This document shows, piece by piece, positions 3,882 through 35,826 of a DNA stretch of 64,000 nucleotides. Below the pieces are notes generated by a model. The model ran no database searches. It was not told the origin of the DNA and worked only from the letters and a program-made list of their open reading frames with translations. How positions within the stretch are numbered: the stretch's first letter is position 1; each line of letters opens with the position of its first letter. The position numbers were made by a program, and so were the translations under genes. Location of the stretch: contig CAJUCZ010000004.1 of NCBI GenBank assembly GCA_910585375.1, forward strand, positions 10,636-74,635. Reading direction: 5' to 3'. The stretch is from an uncultured Alphaproteobacteria bacterium. GTDB lineage: Bacteria; Pseudomonadota; Alphaproteobacteria; RF32; CAG-239.

Positions 3882-3958
3882 TGGTCGGGATGACTGGATT
3901 TGAACCAGCGGCCCCTTGCACCCCATGCAAATGCGCTACCAGGCTGCGCTACATCCCG
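3882..3958 (-). tRNA. tRNA-Pro (anticodon GGG)
   Basis: reverse complement folds as cloverleaf: acceptor CGGGATG/CATCCCG, D-stem GCGC/GCGC, anticodon stem TTTGC/GCAAG with loop AUGGGGU (anticodon GGG), T-arm GCTGG-TTCAAAT-CCAGT, discriminator A, CCA encoded. Confidence 0.85.
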
Positions 3959-26566: not shown

Positions 26567-26597
26567 TTGCAAAAGTCATAGATTTGTTTATGATAAT
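26567..26597 (+). promoter_or_regulatory. sigma70-like promoter of HTH cassette copy 2 (TTGCAA … TATGATAAT)
   Basis: AAAAAAATCCGCTTGCAAAA block shared verbatim with copy 3. Confidence 0.55.
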
Positions 26598-26602
26598 ACC
26601 CG

Positions 26603-26781
26603 CAGTCCGGAGGCGGACTGTGGTGTCGAAAACATCTTACGAGTTAATCCGCTTTGGCGGAGTTTGGGAAATAAGCCGCTTTGCGGGCGAATAACCATAG
26701 CTGTCTCGTACAGTTTTTCGGCTCCGCCACCCTTGTTTTAGGGTGGTTTTGTTTTAATCAAAACTAGGAGCTAAAAATAAA
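26603..26781 (+). ncRNA. structured 5' leader of HTH cassette copy 2
   Basis: hairpin CAGTCCG-GAGG-CGGACTG at 26603-26620; anti-SD GGCTCC; terminator CCACCC-ttgtttta-GGGTGG + TTTTGTTTT; SD AGGAGCT; homologous to 11558-11741 and 31504-31684. Confidence 0.6.
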
Positions 26782-27042: not shown

Positions 27043-27950
27043 TAAAAAAGCGGGAGAGAATCCCGCTTTTTTTCTTCCCTCTTCAAAACAGAAACCCTAT
27101 CACATTTCCCATTGGAGTACCGCAATCCTCAGGGCACCGTACAAACTGACGCCTCACCCGCCGGGTGTGACCGCGGGTCTCATGGCACACGTTTTGTACG
27201 GTGCCACCGGTTGTACCGGTCACCCTCTGTCTTTTTTTTATTGTCACCCTCGGGCTTCAACCCGAGGGACCATCTCACAATCGGCACAGTGCTTGTTTCC
27301 TTATGGATTCTCGGGTCGCAGCCCGAGAATGACAGTAGAAGAAAGCCGCAGAATGACAAATGCTTCAAAGCACCATTCCCCCGTCCGGCACGGTTTGTGT
27401 GCCCTTTGCGAATGGCTTAGGTTTTGGAGCAAAAACCGAAAGTGAAACACCACTCCCCTCAAGCCTGAGGGGTGGGGGAGCGCTAAGTAAAAACAACCGC
27501 AGCTCCGGTTGTTTTTGTCTGCAAGCTCTTTGGAACATCTTGGCAAGCGAGGAAAGCGTTAGCAACCGCAGCGAGCCTAGATGCCTAAGTTGCCCCGCCC
27601 GATTACCGAATGATTTCTTAGCTTTTGGCCCAAAGAGGCGAATATTAAGTACTGAGCCTTGGAACGTAGTGATGTTTGTGGCTGCCGGCCTCCCGGCCTT
27701 TGGGTTGAAAGCTTAGAAAATGAGGTTGGGCTTGACTTTTGCCATTTATTCCTCCCCTGAAGCACATCCTCACATCCGGCATGGTTTGGGTGCCCTTTGC
27801 GAATGGCTTAGGTTTTGGAGCAAAAACCGAAAGTGAAGCACAATGGTAGAGAGCGTAGCGAGATTAATTTTGCTCTGAAACCTTAGCAAATGAGCGTAGG
27901 GCTGCCTTTTTGGTTACTTTTTGGCAGTCAAAAAGTAACAATAAAAAATA
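27043..27950 (+). repeat. non-coding repeat/palindrome-rich region (cassette 3' tail plus ~85-bp direct repeats 27366-27450 and 27757-27842; palindromes at 27133-27205, 27247-27268, 27308-27329, 27490-27520, 27912-27938)
   Basis: no credible ORF; multiple perfect inverted repeats (CCCTCGGG…CCCGAGGG; TTCTCGGG…CCCGAGAA; GTTACTTTTTG-gcagt-CAAAAAGTAAC) and an 85-bp direct repeat 390 bp apart. Confidence 0.6.
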
Positions 27951-27961
27951 AACAACTCTAT

Positions 27962-28320
27962 GAAGAAAACAAAACCAGAAAATAAAAAAAGAAAAACAAC
28001 GAAAAAAGAGAGGAGTAAAGAGAGCGGAGAACAAAAGGGACAAGGGGGCGGGAAAAAGAAAGTAGTGGGGAGATCAGAGAACGGGAAGCGGAGAAGACGG
28101 TGCGGGGAGTGATAGGGCGGAAAGAGAGCGGAGAACAAAAGGAACGGGGAAGCAGGAAAAAGAAAGTAGCGGGGAATGAGGAAAAAGAGAGGAGAAAAAA
28201 CGAAAGAGGGAAAAAGGAAAAATGCGGGGAGTGTGGAATGAGAGGAGAGGACTAAACATCCCCTGATGAGAAAATAAATATGAGTAATGAGATAAAAGAA
28301 AATGAAGAAAACGGGATATA
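27962..28320 (+). repeat. long polypurine (A/G) tract with internal ~104-bp imperfect tandem repeat
   Basis: >90% purines on plus strand for ~360 bp; unit AAAGAGAGCGGAGAACAAAAGG… at 28017 and 28121. Confidence 0.75.
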
Positions 28321-33711: not shown

Positions 33712-33740
33712 TTGCATTTAATTTTTTTTCCCTATATAAG
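33712..33740 (+). promoter_or_regulatory. putative promoter of tRNA-Asp (TTGCAT-17-TATATA/TATAAG)
   Basis: near-consensus hexamers 14 nt upstream of tRNA 5' end. Confidence 0.5.
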
Positions 33741-33753
33741 AAACTCATCTTAC

Positions 33754-33830
33754 GGGGGCGTAGTTCAGCTGGTTAGAATACATGCCTGTCACGCATGGGG
33801 TCGCGAGTTCGAGCCTCGTCGCTCCCGCCA
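33754..33830 (+). tRNA. tRNA-Asp (anticodon GUC)
   Basis: cloverleaf: acceptor GGGGGCG/CGCTCCC, D-arm TAGTTCAGCTGGTTAGAATA, anticodon stem CATGC/GCATG loop CUGUCAC, T-arm GCGAG-TTCGAGC-CTCGT, discriminator G, CCA encoded. Confidence 0.9.
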
Positions 33831-33841
33831 TTATAAAAAAA

Positions 33842-33911
33842 AGCTGCCTTTATGGCGGCTTTTTTTATAATATCAGGGTAGCAGAGGCTCGAACTCGGAA
33901 GAGCCCGCTAA
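33842..33911 (+). repeat. 70-bp direct repeat copy A (terminator hairpin AGCTGCC-ttta-TGGCGGCT + T7, plus tRNA T-arm-like fragment)
   Basis: 69/70 identical to 34179-34248; contains RC of a tRNA-Asp-like T-arm (CCGAGTTCGAGCCTCTG). Confidence 0.7.
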
Positions 33912-33941
33912 GGAAATTTTACCGAGCTCCGGTAAAATTTC
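33912..33941. repeat. near-perfect palindrome GGAAATTTTACCG-agctc-CGGTAAAATTTC (12-bp arms)
   Basis: seen directly; lies between the two 70-bp direct repeats. Confidence 0.7.
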
Positions 33942-34178
33942 TCTGCAAGAGCAATGACATCTTAGTGAAAGAGGGCGTGTGAGCAACCGAATTGAACTTA
34001 GATGCCATTGGACGAAGCTGCGAAGCAGCGTGCCTCGTTGCTCCCAAAAAACATCCTGATTAAAGCTTGTGAGCGAGAGGGCAAAGCGAAACAAGCGTTA
34101 CATAGCGGTGCCCGCAGCGAGTTAGCGTTGCGAATGAAGGTAATGCTTACAAGCCGGAAAAGCCTCATCACAAATTTG

Positions 34179-34248
34179 AGCTGCCTTTATGGCGGCTTTT
34201 TTTATAATGTCAGGGTAGCAGAGGCTCGAACTCGGAAGAGCCCGCTAA
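34179..34248 (+). repeat. 70-bp direct repeat copy B
   Basis: see copy A; spacing 337 bp. Confidence 0.7.
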
Positions 34249-34319
34249 AAGTCGTCATAATTTCTTGAACATCCGTTGTGAATATCATATAATTTGATTT
34301 AAGAATAAGGAAAAAATCA

Positions 34320-35201
34320 ATGCATGACATCTGGAATCCGTGGCACGGTTGTGTTAAAAAAAGCGAGGGCTGCCAAAATTGTTATATGTACTTTCTGGAT
34401 AAACAGCGCAATCAGGACGGCCGCCGGATTTATAAAGTAAAAAACAATTTTGATTATCCGCTGCAAAAAGATAAAAACGGCCGCTATAAAATCAAAAGCG
34501 GTGAGCAGATTCGCGTCTGCATGACATCGGATTTCTTTTTGGAAGAAGCTGATGAGTGGCGTTCGGAAGCATGGAAAATCATGAAAAAAAGGCCGGATGT
34601 CGTCTTTTTTCTGCTGACAAAACGACCGGAACGGGTGGCAGAATGCCTGCCGCCGGATTGGCATGACGGCTGGGAAAATATTTTCTTTAACGTGACTTGC
34701 GAGAATCAGAAACGTGCCGATGAACGGATTCCGCTGCTGTTTAAACTGCCGTTCAAGCATAAAGGCATTATGGTTGCGCCGTTTGTCGGGCCGGTCAGTA
34801 TTAAAAGTTACCTTCCTGCCGGACAAATAGAGCAGGTGATAGCAGGCGGCGAGAACTATGACGGCTCCCGCCCTCTGGCGTATGACTGGGTTAAAAGTCT
34901 TTATGATGAATGTGTCGGGGCAGATGTAACCTTTTGCTTTATTGAAACCGGAACTAATTTTATGAAGGACGGCAAAACATATCATATGCCGGACAAAAGG
35001 CTGCAAAGCCGTATGGCATACAAATCCGGCCTGCAATATCAAGGAAAAGCACAGAAATTTCTGCTCGACAATATAGGACAGGGCTCATTGTTCGGAGAAG
35101 AAGTCTGGCAAAAGTCTTTCTGTTCTCGTTGTCAAACCTGCGGCAGCCGGCTGATTTGTAACGGCTGTTCCGATTGCGGCCAATGCAAAAAACGAAATTG
35201 A
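34320..35201 (+). CDS. phage Gp37/Gp68-like protein (DUF5131 family)
   Basis: N-terminal WNPWHGCVKKSEGCQNCY signature of PF07505; C-terminal Cys cluster; fully overlapped by antisense ORF 34317-35042 which I regard as spurious. Confidence 0.6.
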   Translation: MHDIWNPWHGCVKKSEGCQNCYMYFLDKQRNQDGRRIYKVKNNFDYPLQKDKNGRYKIKSGEQIRVCMTSDFFLEEADEWRSEAWKIMKKRPDVVFFLLTKRPERVAECLPPDWHDGWENIFFNVTCENQKRADERIPLLFKLPFKHKGIMVAPFVGPVSIKSYLPAGQIEQVIAGGENYDGSRPLAYDWVKSLYDECVGADVTFCFIETGTNFMKDGKTYHMPDKRLQSRMAYKSGLQYQGKAQKFLLDNIGQGSLFGEEVWQKSFCSRCQTCGSRLICNGCSDCGQCKKRN

Positions 35202-35270
35202 CATTTGAAAAAATAATCATAAGATAACAAAACAATATACTTATTTTGTTATCTTATTATTCTTCAATCT

Positions 35271-35726
35271 ATGATAAATTATAATTATGTGAAAACTTTC
35301 AGCCGGAATGATATCCCTCTGTATATGAACCTGTTTAAAATACTGGCTCATTTGAAGCGGAGTTACCCTGATTTTGCCCGCTGGTATTTTACCGGATTTA
35401 TTCCGGGGCTGGTTAACAGGCAAAGACAGATAATTTATGCAAAAAATGCCAAGGAACAGATTATAGCTGTCTCTTTGTTAAAGAAAACGCCGCAGGAAGA
35501 TAAAATATGTTGCTTATGGATAAAAAAGGAATATCGCCGTCGGGGCATAGCCTCGCAATTAATGTATAAAAGCCTGAAAGCTCTGGACAATCCCAAGCCG
35601 AAAGTAACGGTTTCCGAAGAAAATTATCCTGAATTTGAAGCTTTATTCAAAAAGTACGGTTTTATTTTAACTTGTATCCGCGATGATGAATACATAGCCG
35701 GAAAAAGGGAGTTCCATTTTAACTAA
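35271..35726 (+). CDS. GNAT family N-acetyltransferase
   Basis: motif A …CLWIKKEYRRRGIASQLM… (R/Q-x-x-G-x-A). Confidence 0.65.
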   Translation: MINYNYVKTFSRNDIPLYMNLFKILAHLKRSYPDFARWYFTGFIPGLVNRQRQIIYAKNAKEQIIAVSLLKKTPQEDKICCLWIKKEYRRRGIASQLMYKSLKALDNPKPKVTVSEENYPEFEALFKKYGFILTCIRDDEYIAGKREFHFN

Positions 35727-35826
35727 AGGTACTTGCGGTAAAACAGCAGGTGCCTTTTTTATACTTTATTCTTGTTTTTGCAAATTTTTGCCGCTAAACT
35801 TCAAAACAACCCGAAGGAGATGTGAA

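Follow-up and report, generated by a model that had tools for sequence, protein, structure and literature searches.

A probable tRNA-linked repeat array, partly decayed, behind the tRNA-Asp gene of an uncultured gut alphaproteobacterium

The DNA analysed here (the window) is a 64-kb stretch from an uncultured member of the Alphaproteobacteria, and this report concerns the segment 33831–34248 that lies directly behind its tRNA-Asp gene. Coordinates are those of the window, and L-numbers denote the fetched M23–tRNA-Asp loci of relatives. tRNA-Asp(GTC) occupies 33754–33830 on the plus strand (ARAGORN; Rfam tRNA model, 61.7 bits) and is preceded by a putative sigma-70-type promoter on the same strand at 33712–33740 (TTGCAT, a 17-nt spacer and TATAAG), which was read off the sequence; a consensus promoter scan did not list this pair of boxes, and we treat the promoter as no more than putative. 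The last 18 nt of the tRNA gene (33813–33830, GCCTCGTCGCTCCCGCCA) are referred to below as the core. An initial annotation, made from the letters alone, had reported that the tRNA gene is followed by a duplicated 70-bp segment holding a terminator hairpin and a reverse-complement fragment resembling a tRNA T arm, then by a near-perfect palindrome with 12-bp arms, a DUF5131 gene and a GNAT acetyltransferase gene, and it had read the whole as the probable remnant of a site-specific integration at a tRNA locus, with genes of phage families. The description was borne out in every one of these features, with the two gene assignments supported by Pfam, while the interpretation had to be largely replaced, as set out below.

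A repeat search of the window gave a direct repeat of 83 nt at 33829–33911 and 34166–34248 (92% identity), of which the inner 70 nt (33842–33911 and 34179–34248) are identical at 69 of 70 positions. A stretch of 38 nt within it is present at these two places and nowhere else in the window, and in none of 100 shuffled versions. Both copies contain a terminator hairpin with the stem GCTGCC-TTTAT-GGCGGC followed by a run of T residues, and both contain a reverse-complement copy of the T arm of tRNA-Asp. In the first copy the terminator (T1) has its stem at 33843–33859 and a T run ending at 33866, and the segment carrying the inverted T arm (the arm) spans 33873–33911; the inverted match is perfect over 14 nt (33804–33817 against 33884–33897) and extends to 38 nt at 79–82% identity. 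Folded together, the 3′ half of tRNA-Asp, T1 and the arm form one hairpin with an energy of −60.7 kcal/mol (z −9.3). Directly 3′ of this copy, at 33913–33941, is the palindrome, GAAATTTTACCG-agctc-CGGTAAAATTTC, which is assigned to neither strand. The window's tRNA-Pro gene (3882–3958) has no comparable repeats.

The nature of these features became apparent from relatives. The exact DUF5131 protein and the adjacent M23 peptidase place the window among uncultured gut Alphaproteobacteria, and the M23–tRNA-Asp locus was compared in about 15 genomes from about ten lineages, in which M23 identity to the window ranges from 97% down to 59%. In most lineages tRNA-Asp is followed by one to at least two tandem units of 209–292 nt and a final partial unit, and full units were found at 12 related loci (L014–L019, L025, L033, L035, L037, L039 and L042). 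Copy numbers taken from metagenome-assembled genomes are lower bounds, as short-read assemblies break at the second repeat copy: in Logan contigs the break falls within the repeat, so that the contigs begin about 100 nt ahead of DUF5131, and two scaffolds instead carry runs of N in their arrays (L005–L010, L034 and L042 are affected in one way or the other). The order within a unit is T1, right after the CCA of the tRNA, then the arm, which includes GCTCGAA, the inverted T loop of the tRNA, then a second hairpin (T2), which is a palindrome flanked by A/T, then a structured tail of roughly 90–140 nt, and finally the core, after which the next T1 begins. The core that ends each unit in the relatives is a perfect copy of the last 18–20 nt of the resident tRNA; its identity with the tRNA starts in the T loop at position 57–59, a border that is constant within 2 nt across four unit types. 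The arm is able to pair backward with the 3′ half of the tRNA or preceding core, or forward with the distal core of its own unit.

The U type of unit, recognized by the tail motif GTTACA, occurs in lineages B, C and E and in L039; the Y type, to which the first unit of the window belongs, is also found in L015, L016 and L033; and the units of L037 and L042 are intermediate between U and Y. Arrays may be mixed (U-U-Y in L015, U-Y in L016), and the type of T1 correlates with the type of arm. At L035 the U tail (X module) is in inverted orientation. The same locus, read as the reverse complement from +77 to +435 relative to the tRNA, also contains an internal 41-nt duplication and a 66-nt mini-unit consisting only of T1, TTTTTGAACCTTCA and the core. 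No full unit is present in L013, L029, L036 or L043, which are candidate empty sites: L029 and L036 have a clean tRNA and T1, while L013 and L043 have T1 with a partial or diverged arm, that of L013 being a weak arm-like remnant (nhmmer E 7e-6). Beyond the locus, about 458 kb of relatives' sequence yielded no unit except one partial paralogue, and a metagenome scan with the unit/core junction returned only the lineage C copies and two chance matches in unrelated sequence.

Read against the units of these relatives, the two 70-mers of the window mark where the first and the last unit of a decaying array begin, and the segment 33831–34248 as a whole appears from its sequence to be a rearranged series of a Y unit, a truncated U unit and a last partial unit, all on the plus strand. 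Unit 1 begins with the first repeat copy, and the palindrome at 33913–33941 is the Y-unit counterpart of T2, which is present in every unit type. The Y-unit tail follows at 33942–34031 (RNAalifold on four Y units and single-sequence folding), with a conserved CTCTGCAAGAGCAATGACATCT, a long hairpin with stem strands at 33958–33965 and 33997–34004, and a GC hairpin at 34017–34029. The unit is closed at 34032–34045 by a degenerate tRNA-Asp 3′ end (core′, GCCTCGTTGCTCCC) that matches at 13 of 14 positions and has lost its GCCA; L015 and L033 keep an intact counterpart of this element in their Y units. The truncated U unit, or X module, spans 34046–34171, of which 34064–34171 was matched by nhmmer with a hidden Markov model of the U unit (E 2e-13) and the assignment agrees with the alignment and with pair counts for P1, the long hairpin of U units. 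It retains the inner P1 stem (34065–34069 with 34092–34096), GTTACA at 34097–34102 and a further hairpin, P3, at 34124–34147, while deletion has removed T1, the arm and T2 along with the outer 5′ strand of P1. A shorter remnant of the tRNA 3′ end (core″, AAGCCTCATCAC) lies at its end, at about 34160–34171. The second repeat copy (34179–34248) then supplies T1 and the arm of the final partial unit and stops just 5′ of where the palindrome would start. The initial annotation was right that the palindrome lies between the two 70-mers, and overlooked the two degenerate tRNA 3′ ends that lie there as well. L012, a relative at 97%, shares the arrangement seen in the window and has better preserved cores.

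The arrays change in concert with the tRNA gene beside them. Distal cores match resident tRNA variants exactly (the tRNA 3′ end is GCCCCGTCACTCCCGCCA in L037 and L042 and GCCTCGTCACTCCCGCCA in L039), and the inverted T arm within the arm tracks the tRNA too, with 13–15 nt of perfect match and GAG/CTC in some loci versus GGG/CCC in others. Copies of a unit are 97–100% identical within a genome, as compared with 57–76% between clades. Copy number varies within species, L019 and L028 having one unit where L025 has two, and L042 at least two where L043 has none. In every lineage the final unit is partial, and its cut point is lineage-specific, ranging from the interior of T1 to the interior of the palindrome. 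Identity within genomes, variation in copy number and partial end units together point to tandem duplication with unequal crossover and gene conversion. The locus is a real tRNA-proximal hot spot of recombination, which fits the earlier integration claim, as do the att-like repeats of the tRNA 3′ end present in the relatives; the 70-mers taken for a scar, however, belong to the first and the last, partial unit of a non-coding tandem array that is conserved across the family, which speaks for duplication and against attL and attR of a decayed prophage. Where further copies of the repeat had been suggested as a check, the 38-nt piece was found only twice in the window and the relatives proved to carry tandem units at tRNA-Asp.

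Within the units, hairpins appear to be under selection, judging from sequence comparison. RNAalifold on ten U units placed P1 immediately 3′ of T2, and in an alignment of 12 sequences its 13 pairs are formed in 88.7% of cells, against 27–54% in controls in which the partner strand was slid. Eight of the P1 pairs have changed on both sides, and the covariation score of 0.448 compares with 0.186 in shuffles (reached in 0 of 500). Pairing is likewise preserved in P3, T1 and T2 or the palindrome despite quite different sequences, and the palindrome and long hairpin of the Y unit show compensatory changes among the window, L033 and a paralogue elsewhere in the window; the palindrome itself is retained in this way in L033 (GGAATTTCACCGC/GCGGTGAAATTC) and in the paralogue at 27489–27518. 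Conservation of the units as a whole is consistent with this. Between clades the units are 65–76% identical where M23 DNA is at 64–68%, whereas the spacer upstream of the tRNA in the same clades is at 53–66%, against a random baseline of 55%; the Y unit of the window and that of L033 are 75% identical where M23 DNA is only 64% identical. Compensatory stems, and conservation of the units next to a randomized spacer, suggest that the units are constrained structured elements.

Arrays of this architecture have one well-known counterpart. tRNA-linked repeats (TLRs) have been known in Escherichia coli since 1978 and include the 178-bp repeats distal to tyrT and tyrV (rtT/RttR RNA) and rrA, rrB and rrF behind rrn operons; to our knowledge they have no accepted function or origin. 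By definition the 3′ 18–19 bp of an E. coli TLR are identical to the 3′ end of the upstream tRNA or rRNA gene, and 22 such repeats have been counted at ten loci, one to five per locus, with function given as unknown (PMC8144298). The three TLRs behind rrn operons are each placed between a pair of terminators and arise by read-through; in vitro they bind Hfq and CsrA (PMC8144298). In our own comparison, the tyrV locus of E. coli K-12 (1285800–1287400) has three 178-nt units, each ending in the 19-nt 3′ end of tRNA-Tyr. The identity there begins at A58 of the T loop, where the alphaproteobacterial border is at 57–59, so that unrelated sequences share a border. The units described here resemble E. 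coli TLRs in following a stable-RNA gene directly and on its strand (they start at the CCA of tRNA-Asp in the window and at 12 related loci), in closing with a copy of its 3′ end (perfect over 18–20 nt in relatives, degenerate in the window), in their tandem arrangement (one to at least two full units and a partial one, varying within species, against one to five copies in E. coli) and in having terminators before and after, as at rrnB. They differ in that each includes the T arm of the tRNA in inverted form and a palindrome flanked by A/T, in that two diverged unit types may share an array, in that a paralogue of one module is found unlinked to a tRNA, and in the class of the host. No homology in sequence or structure was detectable: the Rfam RtT family (RF00391) gave no match at E ≤ 1–5 in the window or in six relatives, and a Smith–Waterman comparison with the tyrV unit was no better than shuffles (z ≤ 3). 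Among known RNA families in Rfam only tRNA was matched, the matches to STnc490 being to insertion sequences of the IS200 type.

We regard it as somewhat probable that 33831–34248 is a partly decayed tRNA-linked repeat array, analogous to the TLRs of E. coli, kept matched to the tRNA by recombination and made of selected, structured units, and the 70-nt duplication is probably not a phage integration scar. Changes in copy number and the identity of the cores with the tRNA would result from unequal homologous recombination or from gene conversion among the direct repeats (core, T1 and arm), and template switching at the long palindrome formed by tRNA, T1 and arm would keep the arm matched to the tRNA. 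The units may be transcribed from the tRNA-Asp promoter by read-through of T1 and T2, and could then be set free as structured RNAs that acquire their 3′ end in the manner of a tRNA; the rrn-linked TLRs of E. coli arise in a similar fashion by read-through of a terminator. Read-through from tRNA-Asp is the most plausible source of such RNA, to judge from the sequence, since the interval from T2 to P1 leaves no space for a promoter and transcription entering from the downstream side is blocked by T1. A promoter of its own for the X module was considered (TTAGAC, 17 nt and TANNNT after T2) and rejected, as the outer stem of P1, which covaries, overlaps its −10 box and spacer; the start of any such RNA must thus be further upstream. 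That the units are genes for structured RNAs tagged with the 3′ end of a tRNA is a bolder proposal, which we think doubtful. Under it the helix of arm and core with G-CCA would imitate an acceptor/T-arm minihelix, and the tRNA maturation machinery (RNase P and 3′ trimming) could excise the unit RNAs from tRNA-Asp read-through transcripts. A related case is 3′ETS-leuZ, a non-coding small RNA made from the 3′ external transcribed spacer, or trailer, of a tRNA operon (PMC8144298), as RNA from the units here is predicted to be; it differs in being unrepeated and in having no copy of the tRNA 3′ end. Two further ideas about the units failed. A tRNA-like fold of the X module, pairing GTGAGCG or GAGAGCG with the 3′ strand of the acceptor, fits L014 and L037 and fails in L039 (GTGAACA against CACTCCC), and its 5′ strand also lies inside the covarying P1; and the arm could not be read as a primer-binding site, as the complement of the last 3′ bases (CCA) is missing.

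Several observations weigh against the array as we read it. That the units act as RNA is something we infer. T1 and T2 look like real terminators, so that read-through may be low; counts of G-U and A-C in the stems are too few, and too balanced, to tell the strand, and both strands fold well, the minus strand slightly better. With about five independent lineages per stem the covariation statistics are modest, and the units are dispensable, given that L013, L029, L036 and L043 do without them. The inverted X module of L035 is not explained by simple unequal crossover. U and Y units are very different and yet share arrays, in a patchy distribution over hosts for which a mobile element is the simpler account, and the left border of the core, always inside the T loop, is of the kind that a site-specific recombinase would be expected to produce.

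These last points lead to the main rival, in which the units are miniature non-autonomous integrative elements resembling cis-mobilizable elements (CIMEs). They would be bounded by attL and attR versions of the 3′ end of tRNA-Asp, would have been inserted in tandem by an integrase that is specific for tRNA-Asp and whose gene lies elsewhere, and would keep their hairpins because the element needs them. Direct repeats of 18–20 nt of the tRNA 3′ end, whose start in the T loop varies by no more than 2 nt among four unit types, are present at both borders as in a CIME, and the signature is shared with the tandem ssrA islands of Dehalococcoides, which have 20-bp direct repeats of the 3′ end of an RNA gene and of which some are free of integrase or any recombinase (PMC3146451). 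Heterogeneous arrays (U-U-Y in L015, U-Y in L016) and presence or absence of units within species would also follow, as would the incongruence of unit type with the M23 tree, where L033 has Y, L035 an inverted X and L036 nothing at 74–84% M23 identity. We nevertheless consider this explanation unlikely. No integrase or recombination module was found, in an element or its neighbours, among the genes around 15 loci; no unit was seen on a viral contig; and no unit lies at another locus in the relatives' sequence searched apart from the one partial paralogue. The sequence after the last core is nearly identical to the start of a unit (T1 and arm, 69/70 in the window), which fits duplication and not the flank of an ancestral attB. 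T1 type is tied to arm type, divergence between hosts is compensatory in stems and so implies a long vertical history, not recent transfer, and integration cannot produce the inverted X of L035. The units share with ssrA islands and CIMEs the layout of tandem segments bounded by RNA-gene 3′-end repeats with a T-loop border; unlike the islands, they are 0.2–0.3 kb, non-coding, structured and conserved across a family-level clade, their copies within a genome are near-identical duplicates, and no recombinase or transfer genes were seen at any locus.

A functionless origin, in which an unstable palindrome and direct repeats undergo neutral duplication, deletion and template-switch copying, would account for the very strong hairpin of tRNA, T1 and arm (z −9.3), for frequent rearrangement with an array end that is different in every lineage, for the dispensability of units in four genomes and for the visible decay of the copy in the window. 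It leaves aside the compensatory substitutions in stems, conservation of the units at or above the level of the coding gene next to them, beside a spacer that is randomized, and the maintenance of the Y-module paralogue at a second locus, and on balance we hold it to be slightly less credible still than miniature elements. The original proposal, a prophage or genomic-island remnant in which the 70-mers are attL and attR, DUF5131 (and GNAT) were brought in and the integrase was later lost, is very improbable and, judged by synteny, largely refuted. In its support, the whole segment is missing from L013 (97% M23 identity), members of the DUF5131 family are frequent in phages, with matches to 157 phage records, and GNAT is strain-specific. 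Both 70-mers, however, lie upstream of DUF5131 and hence on one side of it only, lineage B and L036 have DUF5131 at the equivalent position and it is conserved in the family, its best identity to a phage protein is only 45%, and the array is also conserved where DUF5131 is not adjacent to the tRNA (C, E, L033, L037 and L039). The absence of an integrase, which the initial annotation had stated for the window, was confirmed in Pfam annotation of the genes up to about 10 kb to each side, a scan that did not extend over the remainder of the window, and no integrase family appeared in Pfam annotation of the genes around the roughly 15 loci or in further Pfam scans. Four scans of viral contigs with unit motifs gave no real match, the one hit being a chance 19-mer in a terminase-like open reading frame.

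If the array is what we take it to be, several things are new with respect to the TLRs of E. coli: concerted evolution with the tRNA 3′ end, compensatory changes in hairpins and copy-number polymorphism within species. Because the same architecture is built from unrelated sequence in gut Alphaproteobacteria, the comparison suggests that it is a recurrent, selected solution and not an accident of E. coli, and the many diverged examples offer material for asking whether such repeats are RNA genes, recombination sites or both. Should the RNA-gene proposal be true, the units would provide the first covariation-backed evidence outside enterobacteria for TLRs as functional RNA genes and not recombination debris, and a comparative approach to a puzzle that dates from 1978. 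In practical terms, repeats of a tRNA 3′ end beside a gene of a phage-associated family are insufficient for calling an integration scar, and arrays of this kind break or collapse metagenome assemblies.

The DUF5131 gene (34320–35201, plus strand; Pfam PF07505, E 2e-40) lies outside the array and is, on sequence comparison, a slowly evolving, conserved, resident gene of the chromosome, not the phage cargo for which it had been taken. In lineage B it follows the array at 84–86% identity (M23 85–86%, PpiC 88%), and in the unit-free L036 it is at the equivalent site with 77% identity, where the M23 peptidase has 60%. Recent horizontal transfer, suspected from the 77% identity to L036, was rejected, as slow evolution of the protein explains this value instead. 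In other contexts the gene is 2.3 kb from tRNA-Asp (L042 and L043) or elsewhere on the chromosome (L041). A search returned 5933 homologues at E ≤ 1e-40; among the matches listed (120 of the 5933) identity is 72–99%, and those with a source name are metagenome-assembled genomes of Alphaproteobacteria. None of the 157 phage records matched in a phage search exceeded 45% identity. Conservation of DUF5131 in relatives, which the initial annotation had itself named as evidence that would speak against a phage origin, is thus largely what synteny and these thousands of homologues display. The comparison with an empty site, also proposed there, succeeded once: L013 lacks about 33873–35790, so that tRNA-Asp and its terminator run straight into a membrane-protein gene. 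This locus is best read as a probable deletion of the array and DUF5131, because DUF5131 sits at the syntenic site in lineage B and L036. Residues ~233–265 of DUF5131 (about 35020–35110) are very unlike those of L012, whose segment resembles lineage B, while the rest is close to L012, which suggests a mosaic or recombined segment.

The GNAT acetyltransferase gene (35271–35726, plus strand; Pfam) has a different history, being part of what appears to be a separate and recent insertion, and it is the only gene here that behaves in this way. The strain-specific segment of about 560 bp (35205–35780, plus strand) carries GNAT with its own palindrome and terminator and is absent from L012, L014 and L016, in which the DUF5131 stop joins TCTTGTTTTTGC; GNAT is missing from lineage B as well. 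It opens with a palindrome with 24-nt arms (35212–35264), and its edges are similar short A/T-rich strings, ATACTTAT and ATACTTTAT.

Insertion sequences of the IS200 type were seen at two related loci (L033 5535–6101 and L017 1–58), the latter directly after the unit array; the L033 element has a Y1 transposase gene and a match of 60.9 bits to the Rfam STnc490/IS200 5′ untranslated region. Derivation of the units themselves from a miniature element of the IS200/IS605 type, considered in view of their hairpins and a TTAC motif, was rejected, as P1 and P3 are dissimilar, unlike the ends of such elements.

The paralogue of the Y central module referred to above lies at 27481–27586 on the plus strand, 6.3 kb upstream and not adjacent to a tRNA gene (nhmmer with the Y-unit model, E 1e-10). 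It comprises a palindrome (AAAAACAACCG/CGGTTGTTTTT), CTGCAAG and a long hairpin (CATCTTGGC/GCCTAGATG), and is flanked by 77-nt direct repeats (27374–27450 and 27765–27841; 91% identity, spacing 391) in a non-coding stretch of about 900 nt (context 27060–27960). Two further segments, 26580–26760 and 27085–27240, are GC-rich and strongly self-complementary with T-run ends and resemble small RNA genes with terminators; neither matched an Rfam family (best E 0.02–0.2). Purine-rich direct repeats of 60 nt (28012–28071 and 28116–28175; 85% identity) occur in non-coding sequence just downstream of the stop codon of proS, which is on the minus strand.

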